A stretch of 64,000 bases of DNA from an uncultured Verrucomicrobiae bacterium (GCA_963765205.1 CAVXVB010000009.1:1152001-1216000), one strand, 5' to 3'; positions 21,001 through 27,000 are shown, counted from the first letter of the stretch. Numbers are program-made.

Positions 21001-24000
21001 GCGTTCGCCGCGGATTCCCTGCTGGAGGCGATGGACGCCGGGTTGCCGCTGATGGTCTGCGTCACGGAAGGCATCCCGGTGCGCGACATGCTGCTGGTCA
21101 AGGATCGCCTGGCGCGCAGCGCCACGCGCCTGATCGGCCCGAATTGCCCCGGCATCATCACGCCTGGCGAATGCAAAATCGGCATCATGCCGGGCTATAT
21201 TCACCGGCCCGGCAAAGTCGGCATTGTTTCGCGCTCCGGCACGTTAACTTACGAAGCCGTCTGGCAAATCACGAAACGCGGCCTGGGGCAAAGCACCTGC
21301 ATCGGCATTGGCGGCGACCCCGTCAACGGCACGAGTCATCTCGACGCCGTGCGTTTGCTCAATGAGGACCCACTCACGGAAGCCATCATTATGATAGGCG
21401 AAATTGGGGGCTCCGCAGAAGAAGAAGCCGCCGCCTATATCAAAGCGGAAGTGCGCAAGCCCGTGGCGGGGTTCATTGCCGGGGCCACCGCCCCGCCCGG
21501 CCGCCGCATGGGCCATGCCGGGGCCATTGTTTCCGGCTCGAGCGGCTCGGCCGCCGCCAAAATCGCGGCCATGCGGGAGGCTGGGATCGCGATGGCGCCC
21601 ACGCCTTCGGACATTGCGGACACGTTGTTAAGTCGTTACCTCCCCTGACTGCACCCGTTAGGAATACATTAATGATTGACCCCGTTATACATAGGGATAA
21701 TCATCCATATTAGCAAGGCTATTTGCGGTGCGTTCCGCACCCGTCACAGGCGCTGTCTGCGAGGCACGGAAAAAATTCGAACGAGTGTTGGAAAATTGCT
21801 TGCGCTTTTAATGTAGTGGGCTTATGTTAATCCAGTCGTCTTTATAAATTGACGATAATGGATACCAACCAAGAACAAATCCAGCAACAAAACAAATTAT
21901 GGCTAAGAAACGCAAAATTCGCGCGCGTGCCCCCGGCATGACGCAAATCTCCATCAGTCTTCCCGAAGGGCTCGTGGGCAAAATCGATGAGATGGCGGAG
22001 GTGGAAAACCGCAACCGTTCGAACTTCATCGCCACTGTCTTGGAATCCTTGGCGGGCGAACGCGGGGTCAAAGCCGCCGAAGGCTCGAAGAAGTTTGGTG
22101 GTTAATTCCCTGGGCTGCCCGCAGACGGGATTCATCGGATATGCTTACCGGCAATTCGTGTGGGGATCCTCCCCAGGAGGATTCTCCGGGGAGTTATCTG
22201 GTGTTTTTATATCGATGGATTTTCGTCGGCGGCTACCGCAATCTCAGGCAGGCAGCAGCACGCTGCCTGCCTGTTTTTTTGTCTAATCAGGGGCCGGTGG
22301 TTTGTCGCGAATTCCACCAACCGTTATTGAGGGAAGGGCCCAGCCAGCCCACGAGATATTGGGCGGCGTCGCCGCCGTAGAGATTGACCCCGCCGAGGCG
22401 CGCGGGCAGTTCGGCGGTGACAGAGCCGTCGCACCACGCGACATGGGTGAAACCCTGGTGGCGGAATTGCACGCTGGGGGTCAAGACGGCGCCCAGTGAA
22501 CCATCGGGATTCACGGCCTGAAAAGGCTCACAAAACGGATATTCCTGGAGGCCGTGGGCGCGAGGCAGGCCAGTGTCGGTGAACATGATGGTGCGCGCGG
22601 GGTTGGTCACATTGGTGATTTTTTCCGGGGTAAAGCGATTGGCGGGGGTGCCCCCGATATACATTTCATTATAACCGAAATCACCCGCACCCGCTTCAAA
22701 GCTTTCGGGGCTGGCCGGATAGCGCTGAAAGAGCGGACACAGCAGCGATGCGCCGCCGTCCCGCAGGTAGGGATAGAGGTAGCCTTGGGCGGGGTCGAAC
22801 CTAGCGTGGATGGTGGCCCGCCCGCCATGCCAGCGAATCAGGTCGTTGGGTTCCTGGGCCGGGCAGAAGGACCCACCGTGGTCGGCGGCGTAATGCAAGT
22901 TCGCCTGGGCCAGCAGGCGCAGGTTGGCTGCGGACTTGGCCGACCAGACCCGCTCGCGCGCCAGCTGCCCCGCCCAAGCGAGCAAGCCGGCCAGCACCAG
23001 CCCAACGAAGAGACCCACCAGCACTTCAAGGACGGTCCAGCAGGGCCGCGGCGACACGGGCCAATGTCCTTCTTCATGCGCTTGGTGGCCCATAATGTCT
23101 CATCCTAATATCAGTGCGCGAGCCGCTTCCACCCGACCAAGCCGGCGAGGAACGCCAAGGCCAGAACGGAGATGGTTAAGAGCCAGCCGGTAGAAAACCC
23201 GCGAGTGGATTCTGACGGCAATGGCGCCAACACATTTCCTGCCAACGGCATGCGGGAGGGAGACACTGAAGAACTGGCAGAGTCAGTTTCCGCGCCTGAA
23301 CCAGCCACCCGTGAACCAGAAGAGCCTGCGGCTGACCGGGAGGACGCAGCGACATCGGCAGCACCCATCGTGACCGAGCTTCGCGCAGAGGAAGCGGGAG
23401 ACCCACCGGGAGACGCGAGCGGGGCGTCGGTAGTATTGCCGCCATCCACCGCAACGTCGGCGGAGGGCATAGCGGCATCCAAAGATGGAGAGGATAAATC
23501 GGCGGGGGTGACGTTGGCATAGTTCGGCAGGGAAAAGCTCAAACCAGAATAACCATTAACGACGGAAGCAGGCGCGGTCCGCACAGTAATGTGGGCAGGA
23601 TTATTGATCTCCATGCCGGCGGCGGAAACCGACTCATTCGCGCCGCCCAACTGAGCGGAATTAACCGCCACCGGCGGTGTGGTTGAGTTGGCCGCAGACG
23701 GATTGGGCGGAGGTGCGACATTGAGCACCCCTATGGCCTGCACTTCCGGCCCCGGCGAGCCGGAAGTCGGCCAAGGGTCGTAGATCGGATGCCCGTAGGC
23801 GTCGGTCGAATACGCGCCGTTGCCGACCACCGCAACCAAACGCACGAAACGCACATTTTGCAAATCGAGCAGGCCGGCGGCAACGAGCGGGTGCTGGCTA
23901 AGTTCGGCCAAGTCAAACGGCACGCCCCAGGAAACTCCATAACCGTTCACCGCCTTGCCGAAGAGATTGTAGATCAGCGTGGGATTGGACACCATGTAGG

Positions 24001-27000
24001 ACCAGGGGTTTTGCAGCGGCTTCGGATTCGTGTCCACAGCGGGGAAGCGCGCGAAATTCACGCCGTCGCTGGAAACTTCGACGTAGGCGAGCTTGGAAAA
24101 TACCTGGTTGGCTTGGCCCCGGACACTAAAGGCGTTGCCAAACACGACAAAATCAGGTCCCGGGCCGTCGGCAATCGGCGTGGCAAAGCCGAGAGTGAGC
24201 GAGCCGGGCGCGGCGTCTTCGGCAATATCGGCGGCGGAAAGGTCGCCAGAGGGAGACCACGCCAAAGACATTCCCCGTCACCGCTCCAAGCGCCGTGGTA
24301 GGATCAAGAAAATCCGCATCAATCACGTCCGGCCGCGCAGGCGCGTAATTGACGACCGACGAGGCCCACTCGACAAACGCGGGATTGACGGTTTGTTCGA
24401 GGTTTTCTCCGCCATAGGGCGCGATGCCCGGGCCCGCCGGGCCGACGAAGCCGGGAATTGGCTCGTCCACAGCCGAACCATTACCCGGATCATAACCAAA
24501 GGCATACGGCCCAGCGGGTAGCGGTGGTGGCCAGTTGGGCGAGATCAATTGTGCGGGCAGAGCGCCGCACTCCCCCAGCGCCCAAACGAGCGCAAGGAAG
24601 AATTTTACCGCCCGGTAATTGCGTGCGTTCATCAGTTCGGTAAATTGCTACTCACATGTATGAACTGCCTGGCGCCGGCGTTGCCACCAAGCCACCGCGC
24701 CGGCCGCCAGCGCCGCCAAGAGCGCGGAAGACGCCGGCTCTGGCACATCTTGCACCGTGTCGTAGCCGTAGACAACTGTGCTGCCGTTCGAGAAATCCGA
24801 CTGCCAGACATAGCTCACGTAACCGGTGCCGTTGGTGGAAAACGTACTGAGCGTGTAGGCGCTGTCGGGATCGGCCGCCGCATCCTCGGGGTCAAACATG
24901 CCGCTGAGTCCACTTGCCGGGTTATACCAAAAAAATCCCGGCGCCCCGTAGCCCGCCGCCCAGATGCGACCCTCGGCATCCACCGCAAGGCTGCCAACCA
25001 CATCTGCGGAAAATGTATAGAGGAGCTGGCCTTGGGCCAACGTTAACACCGTCGAGTGGGCCACGGCGTTGAGCACCTGCGCCGCGGTGAATTCGTAAAC
25101 ACTGTTGTTATCGTTGTCGCCGACATAGAGGCTGCCCCCGCTGTCCACCGCCAGGCCTGCGCTGTATTGCCCGGCCGGGTCCACGACCAATTGCTGAGTG
25201 CCGTTAAGCGTAACATAGCTGATCGCGTTGTTTCCGTTGATGTCGTTCTCGCCGGCGACGTAATAGCTCGATCCACTGGCGGGCGCGGCGGAGAAATTTT
25301 GGATGGTCACGTTGCTGGTGTAATTTGGTGTGGCCGGATTCGAGGGGTTGAACTGGTAAACGGGCGTGTTGACGAACTGCCCCGCGCCGACCACCGCTGT
25401 GGTGCTGTTGAGCACGCTGATGAAACTAGGGTCCACATCCGGCGGCGTGGCAAATTCCGTCAGATTGCTCAATCCGAAGCTGTTCTGCAAATACAGCGTG
25501 TTGTCATTGCCGTAAACCAACTGGCCGTCGGGCAATTGGGAAAAAGCCAGCGCGCCGCCGTGTTCGGCGGACGTGGTCAAGTCCGGTAAATCAAGCGTGA
25601 CCCAGGCATGGGCGGGGCTGGTCAGGCCGAAGGCCAGGCCCAGTCCGGCAAGCGAAAAGCGCCGCAGAATGACGCCGCAGCAGGCAAATCTCTTATTAAA
25701 ATAAATCTGTTTTGAAAAGATAAACATGGGAGGCATGCGGCCCGTGACGCGCGGGCCAGCGCAGACGCTTCCCCGATGTATCCGCCCAGGCGCAAAGCGC
25801 GAAACCCCCGGGCGCAAGCACACCTGAAATAGACGCGCTCCATCCCCGAGTTGATCATCCTCCTTGGCCCGGACGTTTAATCGCGAAAGCATCCGAGGTT
25901 AGCACCCGCCCAACTCGTCTTCTGGCTTCCGGTAAAGGCCGCCTGCGCCTTCCCACCCCGCCTACGGCGGGACAGTGGCTCTGGCAGGCGGCGCGACCGG
26001 TTACAGCGGCGCGACCGCGTCCGATTTGCACGGACTTCCGTTTGCTGGACAGGTTTGGTGAGCGCGCAACCTCCACGCAGGAGGCCACGCACCATTAAAA
26101 AGAACGCCCAAAATGTGCGCCTTAAATTGATTGGACGCAAACAAAATTCACCACGACCCGCCGGGCGGCTTTATTATTGCGTCGTCGCCGGCGGCGCGCT
26201 GGTTGGGCTGGTCGGCGAGGTTGCCGAGGACGTGGGCGCGGTGGCCGATGCGGCTGGCCCCGGCGGCCCACCGCGGCCCCGGCCTCCCCTACCTCCGGCG
26301 GTGGCGGGGGGCGCTTCCACAGTCTGGCCGTTTACGACCACGTTGCTGAAGGTGAAATTCGCCACTTCTCCGCGCGAAAGCGTGGGGTTCCGAAGCGTGA
26401 CATTGATGTTTTCGAACTTGAAATCAGTGAGGGTGTCGCCGAGGGTTCCCGCCGCGGGGTTGGCCACGTTGCCGCGAATCGAGCCAAAGGAGCCGAAGCT
26501 GCCGGTGATGTTGCGAACCGTGATATGGTCTGCCGTGCGTGCCGGCCCCGGCTGGCCCTGCAGGTCGAAGAATTGCGTCCACGGCGCGACGGTGATGATG
26601 CTGCCGGTGCCACTGAGCTTGACGCCGTCCACAGTGATGTTCGAATAATGTTGGGGCGTGTCGGGGCGCATCTTGAGGTTGAGCATCTTGGCGTTGCCGG
26701 TGATGGTGCAGTTGCGCACGATGACGTTGCGCACGATCGTGTCCTCGCTGCCGCAGGTGAGCAGGCCATTGCCGTCGCCGATGGTGCAGTCCTCGATGGT
26801 GATGTTTTCGTCCGGCAGATCGCCCAGTTTGTCCGCCAGCGGGCCTTTGCTGCCCTTGATCCCGATGTCGTCGTCGTTGTTGGAAATCTGGCATTTCTGG
26901 ACGGTGACGTTCTGGCAGGTGTCAATGTCAATGCCGTCGGTGCTGGGGCTCATGCCGCCGGTGGAGGGGGAAGCGGCGTTGATGTGTAATCCGACGACGT

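Follow-up and report, generated by a model that had tools for sequence, protein, structure and literature searches.

We analysed a window of 64,000 nt (GCA_963765205.1 CAVXVB010000009.1:1152001-1216000), and all coordinates below are positions in this window. As the first-pass annotation had reported, a cobalamin riboswitch is followed by three co-oriented genes, here called A, B and C, with B in two frames:

26073-25895, minus strand: cobalamin riboswitch aptamer (RF00174), 73.6 bits against a cut-off of 31.5, full model (positions 1-189)
25894-25871, minus strand: putative P13/L13 hairpin, loop CGCGA complementary to L5 (kissing-loop partner)
25757-25739, minus strand: 7-bp GC hairpin that ends the expression platform, about 11 nt ahead of the gene A start codon
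25727-24648, minus strand: gene A (g03124), 359 aa; signal peptide, NHL-type beta-propeller, PEP-CTERM sorting signal
24632-23111, minus strand: gene B (g03123); signal peptide, BtuH-like jelly-roll domain (about 24530-23714), Ser/Ala-rich linker
23093-22287, minus strand: gene C (g03122); type IV pilin/pseudopilin fold, N-terminal methylation-type helix, enlarged head, H-X9-DG motif
22245-22273, no strand assigned: 12-bp hairpin with the T-run facing the plus strand, located 14 nt past the C stop codon

The riboswitch is the only one in the genome, as had been claimed: RF00174 gave no second match. An alignment of 17 riboswitch homologues was made for the aptamer. Its L5 loop is UCGCG at 26014-26010, and the hairpin just downstream, which we take to be P13/L13, carries the complementary loop. 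All eight family leaders combine L5 UCGCG with CGCGR in a conserved element, as judged by sequence complementarity only. Of eight loci of family f18 with L5 UGGCG, seven have their first complementary word immediately ahead of the start codon or overlapping it; many chance words complementary to L5 also occur further downstream. The 7-bp GC hairpin is conserved in the eight family leaders, with one compensatory change. As the kissing loop of L5 and L13 is conserved and the stretch between the aptamer and the start codon of A showed no intrinsic terminator, control of the operon is probably translational or Rho-dependent. From the known behaviour of this riboswitch family, scarce cobalamin would permit expression. 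At the other end, the 12-bp hairpin is a putative terminator of the convergent genes, possibly a bidirectional one; it is weak evidence by itself, because six terminator-like sites, this one among them, were observed against 5.6 expected in shuffles.

The operon had been described as family-specific, and we reject this description. Two other families also have the riboswitch-A-B-C order, in 10 genomes; full-length homologues of A (E<1e-20) were found in 13 of 300 further class genomes, which belong to four other families; and B has at least 7998 homologues. Our class-wide search for A is consistent with the narrower claim that A is missing from the order's other families. Overall, the riboswitch-led module is widespread, and its patchy part is only the propeller in the first slot. 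Within the family, the reported link between A and the riboswitch is borne out, A being present in 9 of 10 genomes with exactly one riboswitch in each. The order of B after A also stands, and its stated frequency of 7 in 8 is corrected: in all eight relatives with A, B comes after A and is in a single unbroken frame. Two loci with A continue into transport genes, one (L035) with a BtuC/BtuD-like ABC pair and another (L042), in which A and B are fused, with DUF4430 and an ECF transporter. A literature search covering mostly papers outside subscription found no description of the module. In the accessible parts of the sources, the "planctosome" (PMC6461901) is a cohesin-dockerin idea unrelated to it, and PMC12530212 and PMC7397252 have no bearing on it.

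Genes A and B

The start of gene A is conserved among relatives, and its product ends in a PEP motif, a helix and a basic tail. The three genes had been said to lack any Pfam or NCBIfam match. In fact, A is over the cut-off for Pfam NHL (23.2 vs 20) and for TIGR02595 PEP-CTERM (16.6 vs 16) and just under it for Pfam PEP-CTERM (18.7 vs 20.7), and orthologues of C pass PF07963/TIGR02532, with one passing TIGR04294. The genome has two exosortase genes. In sequence searches the best PDB matches of A are NHL/Pizza and PknD, and the Atlas search returned generic NHL clusters only. Neither BtuG nor BtuK is among the 28 PDB matches of a single-protein search or among the best 60 of the 79 PDB matches of a 27-sequence profile. 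When longer, fused forms of A were sought, one partial NHL match was obtained; this search was insensitive, because it missed the known fusions in L042-L044 and L110. The first-pass annotation was centred on this propeller and passed over gene C, the stronger comparative signal.

Gene B, which is split in this assembly by one extra base near 24248, ends in a hydrophobic helix and a basic tail, so that by inspection its anchor is a signal peptide plus a C-terminal helix, not a lipoprotein signal. The model of B from an intact relative (L045) was compared with 48,161 PDB representatives. The best match was BtuH2 (7biz_B; Z 12.2, rmsd 3.9, 173 aligned, 19% identity), followed by BtuG1 (8blw_B; Z 11.0, rmsd 4.3, 179 aligned), with the next at Z 8.8; the jelly-roll fold is common, and CBM32 lectins match the B model at Z up to 8.8. 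Foldseek with a B-family model ranked 8blw first. For a 72-sequence B profile, 7biz and 8blw were the only PDB matches below E 0.9; the E-values were 4.1e-11, for the H-domain of BtuG1, and 8.9e-6, with coverage of the N-terminal half only. Single-sequence PDB searches with B or the B2-type domain gave nothing useful, and only profiles and fold succeeded. The match to 8blw had been set aside as not significant; by both fold and profile searches it is real and falls in the BtuH domain, and we reject the view of it as noise. B is a distant homologue of BtuH's B12-binding domain. The homology is computed; corrinoid binding by B is what we infer from it, and we regard it as rather likely.

Residue comparisons used the numbering in which chain index + 100 gives the published Q333, F334, N399, F401 and E406. 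N399 and F401 of BtuH2, which belong to the nucleotide-loop site, align with a GNAF motif that is present in gene B, its Asn being kept in 72/72 family members and its Phe in 45/72. At the position of the metal ligand E406, B has Lys; Glu is found there in 63 of the 72 members, and Lys in 14 of the 18 propeller-linked copies. The Q333/F334 region shows no conservation in the B profile and no clear counterpart. The region of Y475, H476, Y510, W511, D522, W577, L578, S582 and E584 lies in the C-terminal half, which aligned below threshold only.

Across phyla, the B family is tied to cobalamin riboswitches. Among 80 B loci from Planctomycetota, Verrucomicrobiota, Cyanobacteria, Desulfobacterota, Myxococcota and Proteobacteria, 63 carry a riboswitch-like match upstream on the same strand (57 of 74 when the training loci are left out; 2 of 80 in the mirror control). 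Rfam confirmed six of nine such matches and found a cobalamin riboswitch in none of 10 loci negative by our own model, and no clear variant emerged when 20 upstream regions were scanned for motifs. A receptor is linked to B in 13 of the 80 loci and a DUF4465-like gene in 44; in the present operon the NHL propeller A stands in the slot usually held by this B12 binder. The proposed DUF4465 link does not hold for this genome, where DUF4465 (PF14717) gave no match while the control in B. thetaiotaomicron was positive; elsewhere it lies beside B or is fused to it. B itself, with no PF14717 match, is rejected as a DUF4465 member. In NCBIfam, B weakly matches the LIC_13355 lipoprotein family, a match that could not be linked to B12; the accessible part of PMC3493377 does not mention it.

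In B. thetaiotaomicron, according to the accessible parts of PMC8941943, PMC10404256, PMC13616437 and PMC13398666, BtuH (BT1956, 7BIZ), BtuG/BtuGH (8BLW), BtuJ (DUF4465) and BtuK form a surface relay that feeds BtuB and BtuFCD. The present operon resembles this relay in its cobalamin-riboswitch control, in its several surface-exposed proteins, in the BtuH-fold domain with the N399/F401 motif and in having DUF4465 as the usual partner in the wider B family; as in BtuGH, the partner here is a beta-propeller, and in L042 and L110 it forms a fusion with the BtuH-like domain. However, the operon lacks btuB and btuFCD, the riboswitch-A-B-C locus has no receptor gene and the genome no riboswitch-led receptor, and the proteins are anchored by PEP-CTERM or a C-terminal helix instead of a lipoprotein signal. 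B is only about 20% identical to BtuH, with several ligand residues changed, propeller A is NHL-type, with neither the seven-bladed BtuG nor BtuK among its best sequence matches, and the operon is closed by a pilin-fold gene. Because A holds the slot usual for the proven binder DUF4465/BtuJ, this position suggests that it is probably a second capture or hand-over protein; that A binds a corrinoid itself is quite possible, if just short of probable.

Gene C and its alternation with receptors

The model of C (pLDDT 91.8) has an N-terminal helix of 51 residues. Its 18 best structural matches are all pilins or pseudopilins, the best Z of 5.8 being modest by itself, and Foldseek gave no match under E 0.001. 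Glu5 of the helix is invariant in 38/38 C sequences. Residue -1 of the predicted cleavage site is Cys here and Gly or Ala in most orthologues showing that position. TIGR04294 scores 14.2 vs a cut-off of 19 here and 22.6 in L035, and the H-X9-DG motif is visible by eye. DUF1559 (PF07596) does not match C, and orthologues match over about the first 30 positions only. With its Glu5 helix, H-X9-DG motif, pilin fold and flanking secreted-protein genes, C is like the H-X9-DG (TIGR02532, TIGR04294)/DUF1559/SBP_bac_10 proteins of PVC bacteria, as the accessible part of PMC8567305 describes them. By contrast, no ligand is known for the H-X9-DG/DUF1559 families, which are expanded to 28-71 matches per genome, whereas C forms a conserved clade, mostly single-copy and riboswitch-tied, and past the helix its head has no match to DUF1559. 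A predicted complex of the B domain and the C head (both from L052) scored 0.00 in two runs with controls not folded, which is evidence neither way.

Gene C carries the strongest comparative signal of the operon. The C clade is riboswitch-led in 40 of 46 class genomes: a riboswitch lies upstream of 22 of 28 close orthologues (five gave no match and one is cut by a contig end) and of all 18 second-tier homologues, which were picked by protein similarity alone. In five control genomes with 242 pilin-like matches and six riboswitches, all six lead the six best C matches.

C and a TonB-dependent receptor never share any of the 80 B loci (C in 41, receptor in 13, neither in 26). At the genome level, in two scans that scored only 8 and 4 candidates per genome, a riboswitch-led receptor is present in 29 of 151 class genomes, C in 19 and both in none, and within f18 the receptor is present in 15 of 41, C in 14 and both in none; these genomes are kin, so that P values for the exclusion are overstated. 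The alternation is also seen within genera g69 and g56 of f18. Some receptor matching the profile occurs in 7 of the 46 C genomes, and in one genome (G275) a second riboswitch with a receptor and TonB comes directly after riboswitch-B-B-C. In the family itself, no TonB-dependent receptor of any kind was detected in six of 10 genomes, three of them at least 92% complete, and C was not found in five (G305, G306, G307, G309 and G301). C is dispensable to the operon, since G305 (83% complete) and G307 (92%) keep riboswitch-A-B without C and without any TonB-dependent receptor.

Probable corrinoid capture and proposed routes of entry

The reported B12-dependent methionine synthase is present: the genome has a single gene with a B12-binding domain, a 1263-aa open frame taken as MetH. 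MetE was not found in this genome. The absence of a corrin-ring pathway also agrees with our searches, CbiC not being found in any of the 10 family genomes. Of the earlier proposal of a family-specific operon for cell-surface corrinoid uptake, the first qualifier falls and the capture part is better supported than before, because B is a homologue of a BtuH-type domain and its family is riboswitch-led across phyla. That the operon is a corrinoid capture/salvage module is very likely, and a B12-repressed corrinoid-scavenging surface module is a likely explanation of the locus as a whole.

We propose that A, through PEP-CTERM, and B, through its C-terminal membrane anchor, would be exported and displayed on the envelope, where B would hold the corrinoid in a BtuH-type pocket. 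C, as a dedicated pilin, would most likely take over the corrinoid and link capture to entry. Entry would use the secretin of the cell's type IV pilus/type II secretion machinery in place of BtuB, and passage of the inner membrane would then fall to an unlinked ABC transporter of the FecCD type. In the genome, three secretins score above the cut-off and T2SSE-family ATPases are numerous. Type IV pili mediate uptake elsewhere, for example in competence, with a ligand-binding head on the pilin and a secretin as the outer-membrane route. The proposed route would be like competence-type uptake in its C head and secretin, and unlike it in that the cargo would be a vitamin and no assembly genes are linked in the operon. 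The role of C as a functional stand-in for BtuB is a tentative suggestion. So is the wider idea that PVC bacteria may import B12 without a TonB-dependent receptor, from surface BtuH-like, DUF4465 or propeller proteins to a ligand-binding pilin and on to the secretin.

If this were true, the expanded H-X9-DG/DUF1559 families would serve as uptake pilins, each specific to a substrate, and would correspond in PVC bacteria to SusC/SusD pairs; B12 would be the first cargo identified for them. One clade of a large pilin-like family without assigned function in Planctomycetota and Verrucomicrobiota is tied to a defined small molecule, and large-solute uptake in such bacteria, some without a detected receptor, becomes testable with a ligand that is coloured and cheap. 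The BtuH fold, so far placed in gut Bacteroidota by the accessible parts of the cited literature, is extended to an unnamed family that counts thousands of proteins from many phyla; the btuH homologue lists (PMC8941943) and a neighbourhood analysis (PMC13398666) may bear on the novelty of B.

The capture module could also stop at storage. A and B would then be surface B12 reservoirs and C an accessory binder, inner-membrane-anchored or periplasmic and never assembled into a pilus, with B12 entering by an unlinked path (a porin, an unregulated receptor or vesicle-like uptake). The loss of C with retention of A-B in several genomes of the genus, the riboswitch-led receptor beside C in G275, an operon without pilus-assembly genes and two unregulated TonB-dependent receptors in this genome all fit this account, which nevertheless leaves unexplained the near-perfect alternation of C with riboswitch-led receptors, also inside genera, and a Glu5 invariance expected of a processed, assembled protein; we hold it possible but on the doubtful side. 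It is unlikely that C is a cargo-specific pseudopilin for secretion or display of the neighbouring surface proteins, without contact with B12: despite its pilin fold and the signal-peptide genes that often flank such N-methyl protein genes in one planctomycete (PMC8567305, accessible part), C is conserved while its neighbours are mutually unrelated (DUF4465, propellers, unnamed domains), and B-family proteins do without C in 13/13 receptor-type loci.

The two remaining accounts concern the ligand and the state of the locus. A B12-repressed operon for another ligand (cobalt, a glycan or a partner cell), with a lectin-like B and a pilin that attaches to B12 producers, would suit the CBM32/discoidin folds ranking next after BtuH and the partly replaced BtuH metal ligands of this lineage. 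We regard it as very unlikely, as the sequence-level match is to BtuH-type chains only, B occurs in operons with DUF4465, TonB-dependent receptors, FecCD and ECF transporters, and cobalt uptake would be of little use to a family in which CbiC was not found. Decay of the operon in this genome, with B a true pseudogene, is quite unlikely. The frameshift in B, the unusual residue before the cleavage site of C and the loss of C in close relatives speak for it, yet MetE was not found and B is not the only broken gene: the neighbouring housekeeping gene sucD is likewise frameshifted and several T2SSE matches are split, which indicates assembly indels. The frameshift in B is probably such an assembly error, and both halves of B are 61-84% identical to the closest relative.

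Organization and spread of the riboswitch-led operon

The operon is conserved among relatives, and its elements in the window are the following:

26073-25895, minus strand: cobalamin riboswitch (Rfam, 73.6 bits, whole model)
25727-24648, minus strand: gene A (g03124), 359 aa
24632-23111, minus strand: gene B (g03123), split over two frames
23093-22287, minus strand: gene C (g03122), 268 aa

The first-pass annotation had described a single cobalamin riboswitch ahead of three co-oriented genes, and this arrangement was confirmed: the riboswitch is the sole Rfam cobalamin match in the genome (4.0 Mb, 92% complete), and three same-strand genes follow it. 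The L5 loop reads UCGCG. A complementary CGCGR element 3' of the aptamer and a GC hairpin just 5' of the AUG were kept in all eight family leaders, and no intrinsic terminator was found in the leader of this operon. For 7 of 8 loci of another family, f18, the word complementary to L5 is located at the start codon, an indication that control is translational in that family. The module would be repressed by B12. About 100 nt separate the riboswitch from the end of a GH28 polygalacturonase-like gene upstream of it (26174-27802, minus strand), and the upstream neighbours vary among relatives; in one genome of the genus, metE (G306:C236:2866-3837, plus strand) lies divergently about 1.6 kb from the riboswitch.

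Gene A was present in 9 of the 10 family genomes. The operon had been thought family-specific, a view that can no longer be held, as full-length A homologues (E<1e-20) occurred in 13 of 300 other class genomes, from four families. Ten of these 13 showed the order A-B-C, with an Rfam riboswitch 5' of nine and the tenth cut by a contig end. Nor is A devoid of Pfam and NCBIfam matches, as had been stated: its scores are just above the NHL and PEP-CTERM cut-offs, and the genome encodes two exosortases. Its PDB matches were NHL/Pizza propellers and PknD; BtuG and BtuK were not among them.

Both parts of B stand in one frame in all eight family relatives with A, and a DNA alignment with three relatives placed one extra base near 24248. 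The earlier view that the protein starts in another frame and is frameshifted in the assembly was thus upheld. An indel of the assembly is the likelier explanation, ahead of a pseudogene, since sucD beside the operon is also frameshifted relative to its orthologues and several T2SSE-family matches are split. The frameshift in sucD (about 20774-21648, plus strand) lies near residue 45 by comparison with family orthologues and is probably an assembly indel too.

Homology of gene B to BtuH

The evidence on B came from profiles and a structural model, both compared with BtuH2 (7BIZ) and BtuG1 (8BLW), B12-binding surface proteins of the Bacteroides thetaiotaomicron Btu relay. Profiles of 18, 96 and 72 sequences matched residues 373-498 of 8BLW chain B with E values of 5.5e-6, 6.5e-7 and 4.1e-11, respectively. 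The 72-sequence profile also matched BtuH2 (E 8.9e-6) and no other PDB entry under E 0.9. A model of the B domain, built from the intact copy of the closest relative (pLDDT 81), had 7biz_B as its best structural match (Z 12.2; 173 residues at rmsd 3.9 and 19% identity), ahead of 8blw_B with Z 11.0. After these two the score dropped to Z 8.8, and below that came jelly rolls of the CBM32/discoidin type, most of them with some 10% identity. Foldseek ranked 8blw first and 7biz fourth. The 8blw match, formerly dismissed as not significant, therefore has to be reinstated, and B is homologous to BtuH. According to passages of PMC10404256, the matched region of BtuG1 is a C-terminal extension homologous to BtuH2; a passage of one review puts this extension at the N terminus, which the B profile matches do not fit.

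Ligand residues of BtuH2 named in parts of PMC8941943 and PMC13616437 include N399, F401, E406 and Q333/F334. N399 and F401 align with a GNAF motif that B of this genome has. Glu occupies the E406 position in 63 of the 72 family members, against Lys in the lineage of this genome, and Q333/F334 are not kept; for further ligand residues the alignment of B is unreliable. Judged from these comparisons, B probably works like BtuH, though it is not filed as BtuH. Corrinoid binding is probable for B and possible for A. The B family is large, taking in 7998 of 8000 scored candidates and 3231 clusters at 50% identity.

From 589 confirmed GTDB loci we took the 80 best. Our own nhmmer profile found a same-strand riboswitch-like match 5' of B in 63 of the 80, 59 of them within 3.5 kb; without the six training loci the count was 57 of 74, and a mirror control gave 2 of 80. 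Six of the 17 negative loci have fewer than 600 bases of upstream sequence, and Rfam confirmed the riboswitch in 6 of 9 loci tested directly. Genes similar to DUF4465, members of which bind B12 according to parts of PMC13398666, were found in 44 of the 80 loci and A in 4, so the first slot of the module is exchangeable. A search of the genome under study for DUF4465 gave no match.

At L035, one of the loci with A, the module continues into a FecCD permease and an ABC ATPase, whose best-scoring specific models, below cut-offs, include BtuC and corrinoid ATPases. Locus L042, in a Gram-negative genome, encodes an A-B fusion with a second B-like protein after it; directly 3' of the fusion, at L042:9901-13932, come DUF4430 and an ECF transporter comprising a T component, a double ATPase and an S component. 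Loci L042 to L044 gave no Rfam riboswitch match at cut-off; they do match our own riboswitch profile. B loci without an Rfam cobalamin riboswitch include L157-L162, L139 and L142, several of them carrying DUF4465 together with a TonB-dependent receptor; in family f3, RF00174 matched 0 of 11 genomes. A riboswitch variant that goes unrecognised, or a different regulator, may act in these cases. A further unnamed family of secreted proteins led by a riboswitch (L042:5211-5870, L191, L193, L196) starts with a W-x-G-x-G-x-N-x-AALV motif, matched only PEP-CTERM in the single copy scanned, and is a candidate for a further corrinoid binder. At L078 (Desulfatiglandales), a c-di-GMP-I riboswitch stands no more than about 120 nt behind each of three cobalamin riboswitches (5599-6079, 9492-9869 and 16052-16620), forming tandem two-ligand switches ahead of surface-protein genes.

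The pilin-like gene C and TonB-dependent receptors

The predicted structure of C (pLDDT 92) shows a pilin fold that joins a long N-terminal helix to a large head. In the structural comparison the top 18 rows were without exception pilins or pseudopilins, the highest Z being 5.8, and Foldseek returned no significant match. An alignment of 38 orthologues showed invariant Glu5, RW, GxxGYN, FR, W and GW motifs. A search of 301 class genomes gave close orthologues of C in 28 (E<1e-70) and second-tier homologues in another 18 (1e-35 to 1e-43). B adjoined 27 of the 28 close orthologues. A riboswitch preceded 22 of them (10 by Rfam, 12 by our own profile); five had none, four of these also checked with Rfam, and one was cut off. 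All 18 second-tier homologues were preceded by a riboswitch (16 by Rfam, 2 by our own profile). In five control genomes with 242 pilin-like matches, 150 of them listed, and six riboswitches, each riboswitch led one of the six best C matches. B and C are statistically linked to cobalamin riboswitches. Four loci (L154:3613-4794, L155:5563-6825, L172, L170) have, 5' of second-tier C pilins, an unnamed beta-rich domain that matches no Pfam model and in some cases forms a fusion with a divergent B-like domain. Convergent with C lies a 68-aa ORF (21899-22105, plus strand), presumably a ribbon-helix-helix/CopG regulator, which the hairpin at 22245-22273 probably terminates. According to passages of PMC8567305, pilin-like proteins such as C form an expanded family in planctomycetes, to which no role has been assigned.

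Overall, 41 of the 80 B loci carried C, 13 a TonB-dependent receptor, none both and 26 neither; five of the latter have a DUF1559 pilin-like gene instead. This split largely follows phylum, and the comparison was therefore made within the class. In 151 class genomes (handles up to G150; riboswitch within 1.6 kb 5' of the receptor; ten riboswitch rows falling short of the Rfam cut-off left out, one, G112, retained), a riboswitch-led receptor occurred in 29, C in 19 and both in none (3.6 expected). Among 41 genomes of f18, 14 had C, 15 a profile-matching receptor and none both (5.1 expected). C and receptor alternate within genera g69 and g56, and in six class genomes B lies directly beside a receptor, with no C. 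The figures for the class and for f18 alike are suggestive, because kin are not independent and the searches scored only 8 and 4 candidates per genome. Strict exclusion is contradicted by G275, in which riboswitch-B-B-C precedes another riboswitch with a receptor and TonB, and by the 7 of 46 genomes with C that have a receptor matching the profile (14.4 expected). Also against a strict rule, five of the ten family genomes gave no C, including G307 (92% complete) and G305 (83% complete); these two retain riboswitch-A-B, and no receptor was found in them either.

Probable corrinoid capture and a possible route of entry

A single B12-binding-domain gene occurs in the genome; its 1263-aa frame was taken to be MetH. 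MetE was not found in this genome and is present in 3 of the 10 family genomes; CbiC was found in none of the ten. The two TonB-dependent receptors of the genome under study lack a riboswitch and gave no match to a BtuB-type profile at E 1e-40, and in six of the ten family genomes no such receptor was found. BtuC models score best, below cut-off, on one FecCD permease of this genome, but the adjoining ATPase passes a heme ABC model. One periplasmic binding protein of that class is encoded elsewhere. The genome also encodes three secretins and many T2SSE-family ATPases.

We consider it very likely that the module serves corrinoid capture, as a variant of the Bacteroides-type Btu relay. A and B would be displayed on the surface, and corrinoid bound by them might be handed over to C, pass through a secretin and be imported across the inner membrane by an unlinked ABC system. 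This pilin route for B12 entry is a tentative proposal, and the odds are somewhat against it; if true, it would represent a novel mode of vitamin import. The module was not found described in the literature searched. A T2SSE/PilB-family ATPase gene (2394-3551, minus strand) lies about 19 kb from the operon. Also in the window, the alaS ORF (14546-18235, plus strand, 1229 aa) contains, at about 15620-16170, an insert of some 180 aa that keeps the frame and has a DHVHLL motif, and which we take to resemble a REP-associated Y1 (HUH) transposase domain.
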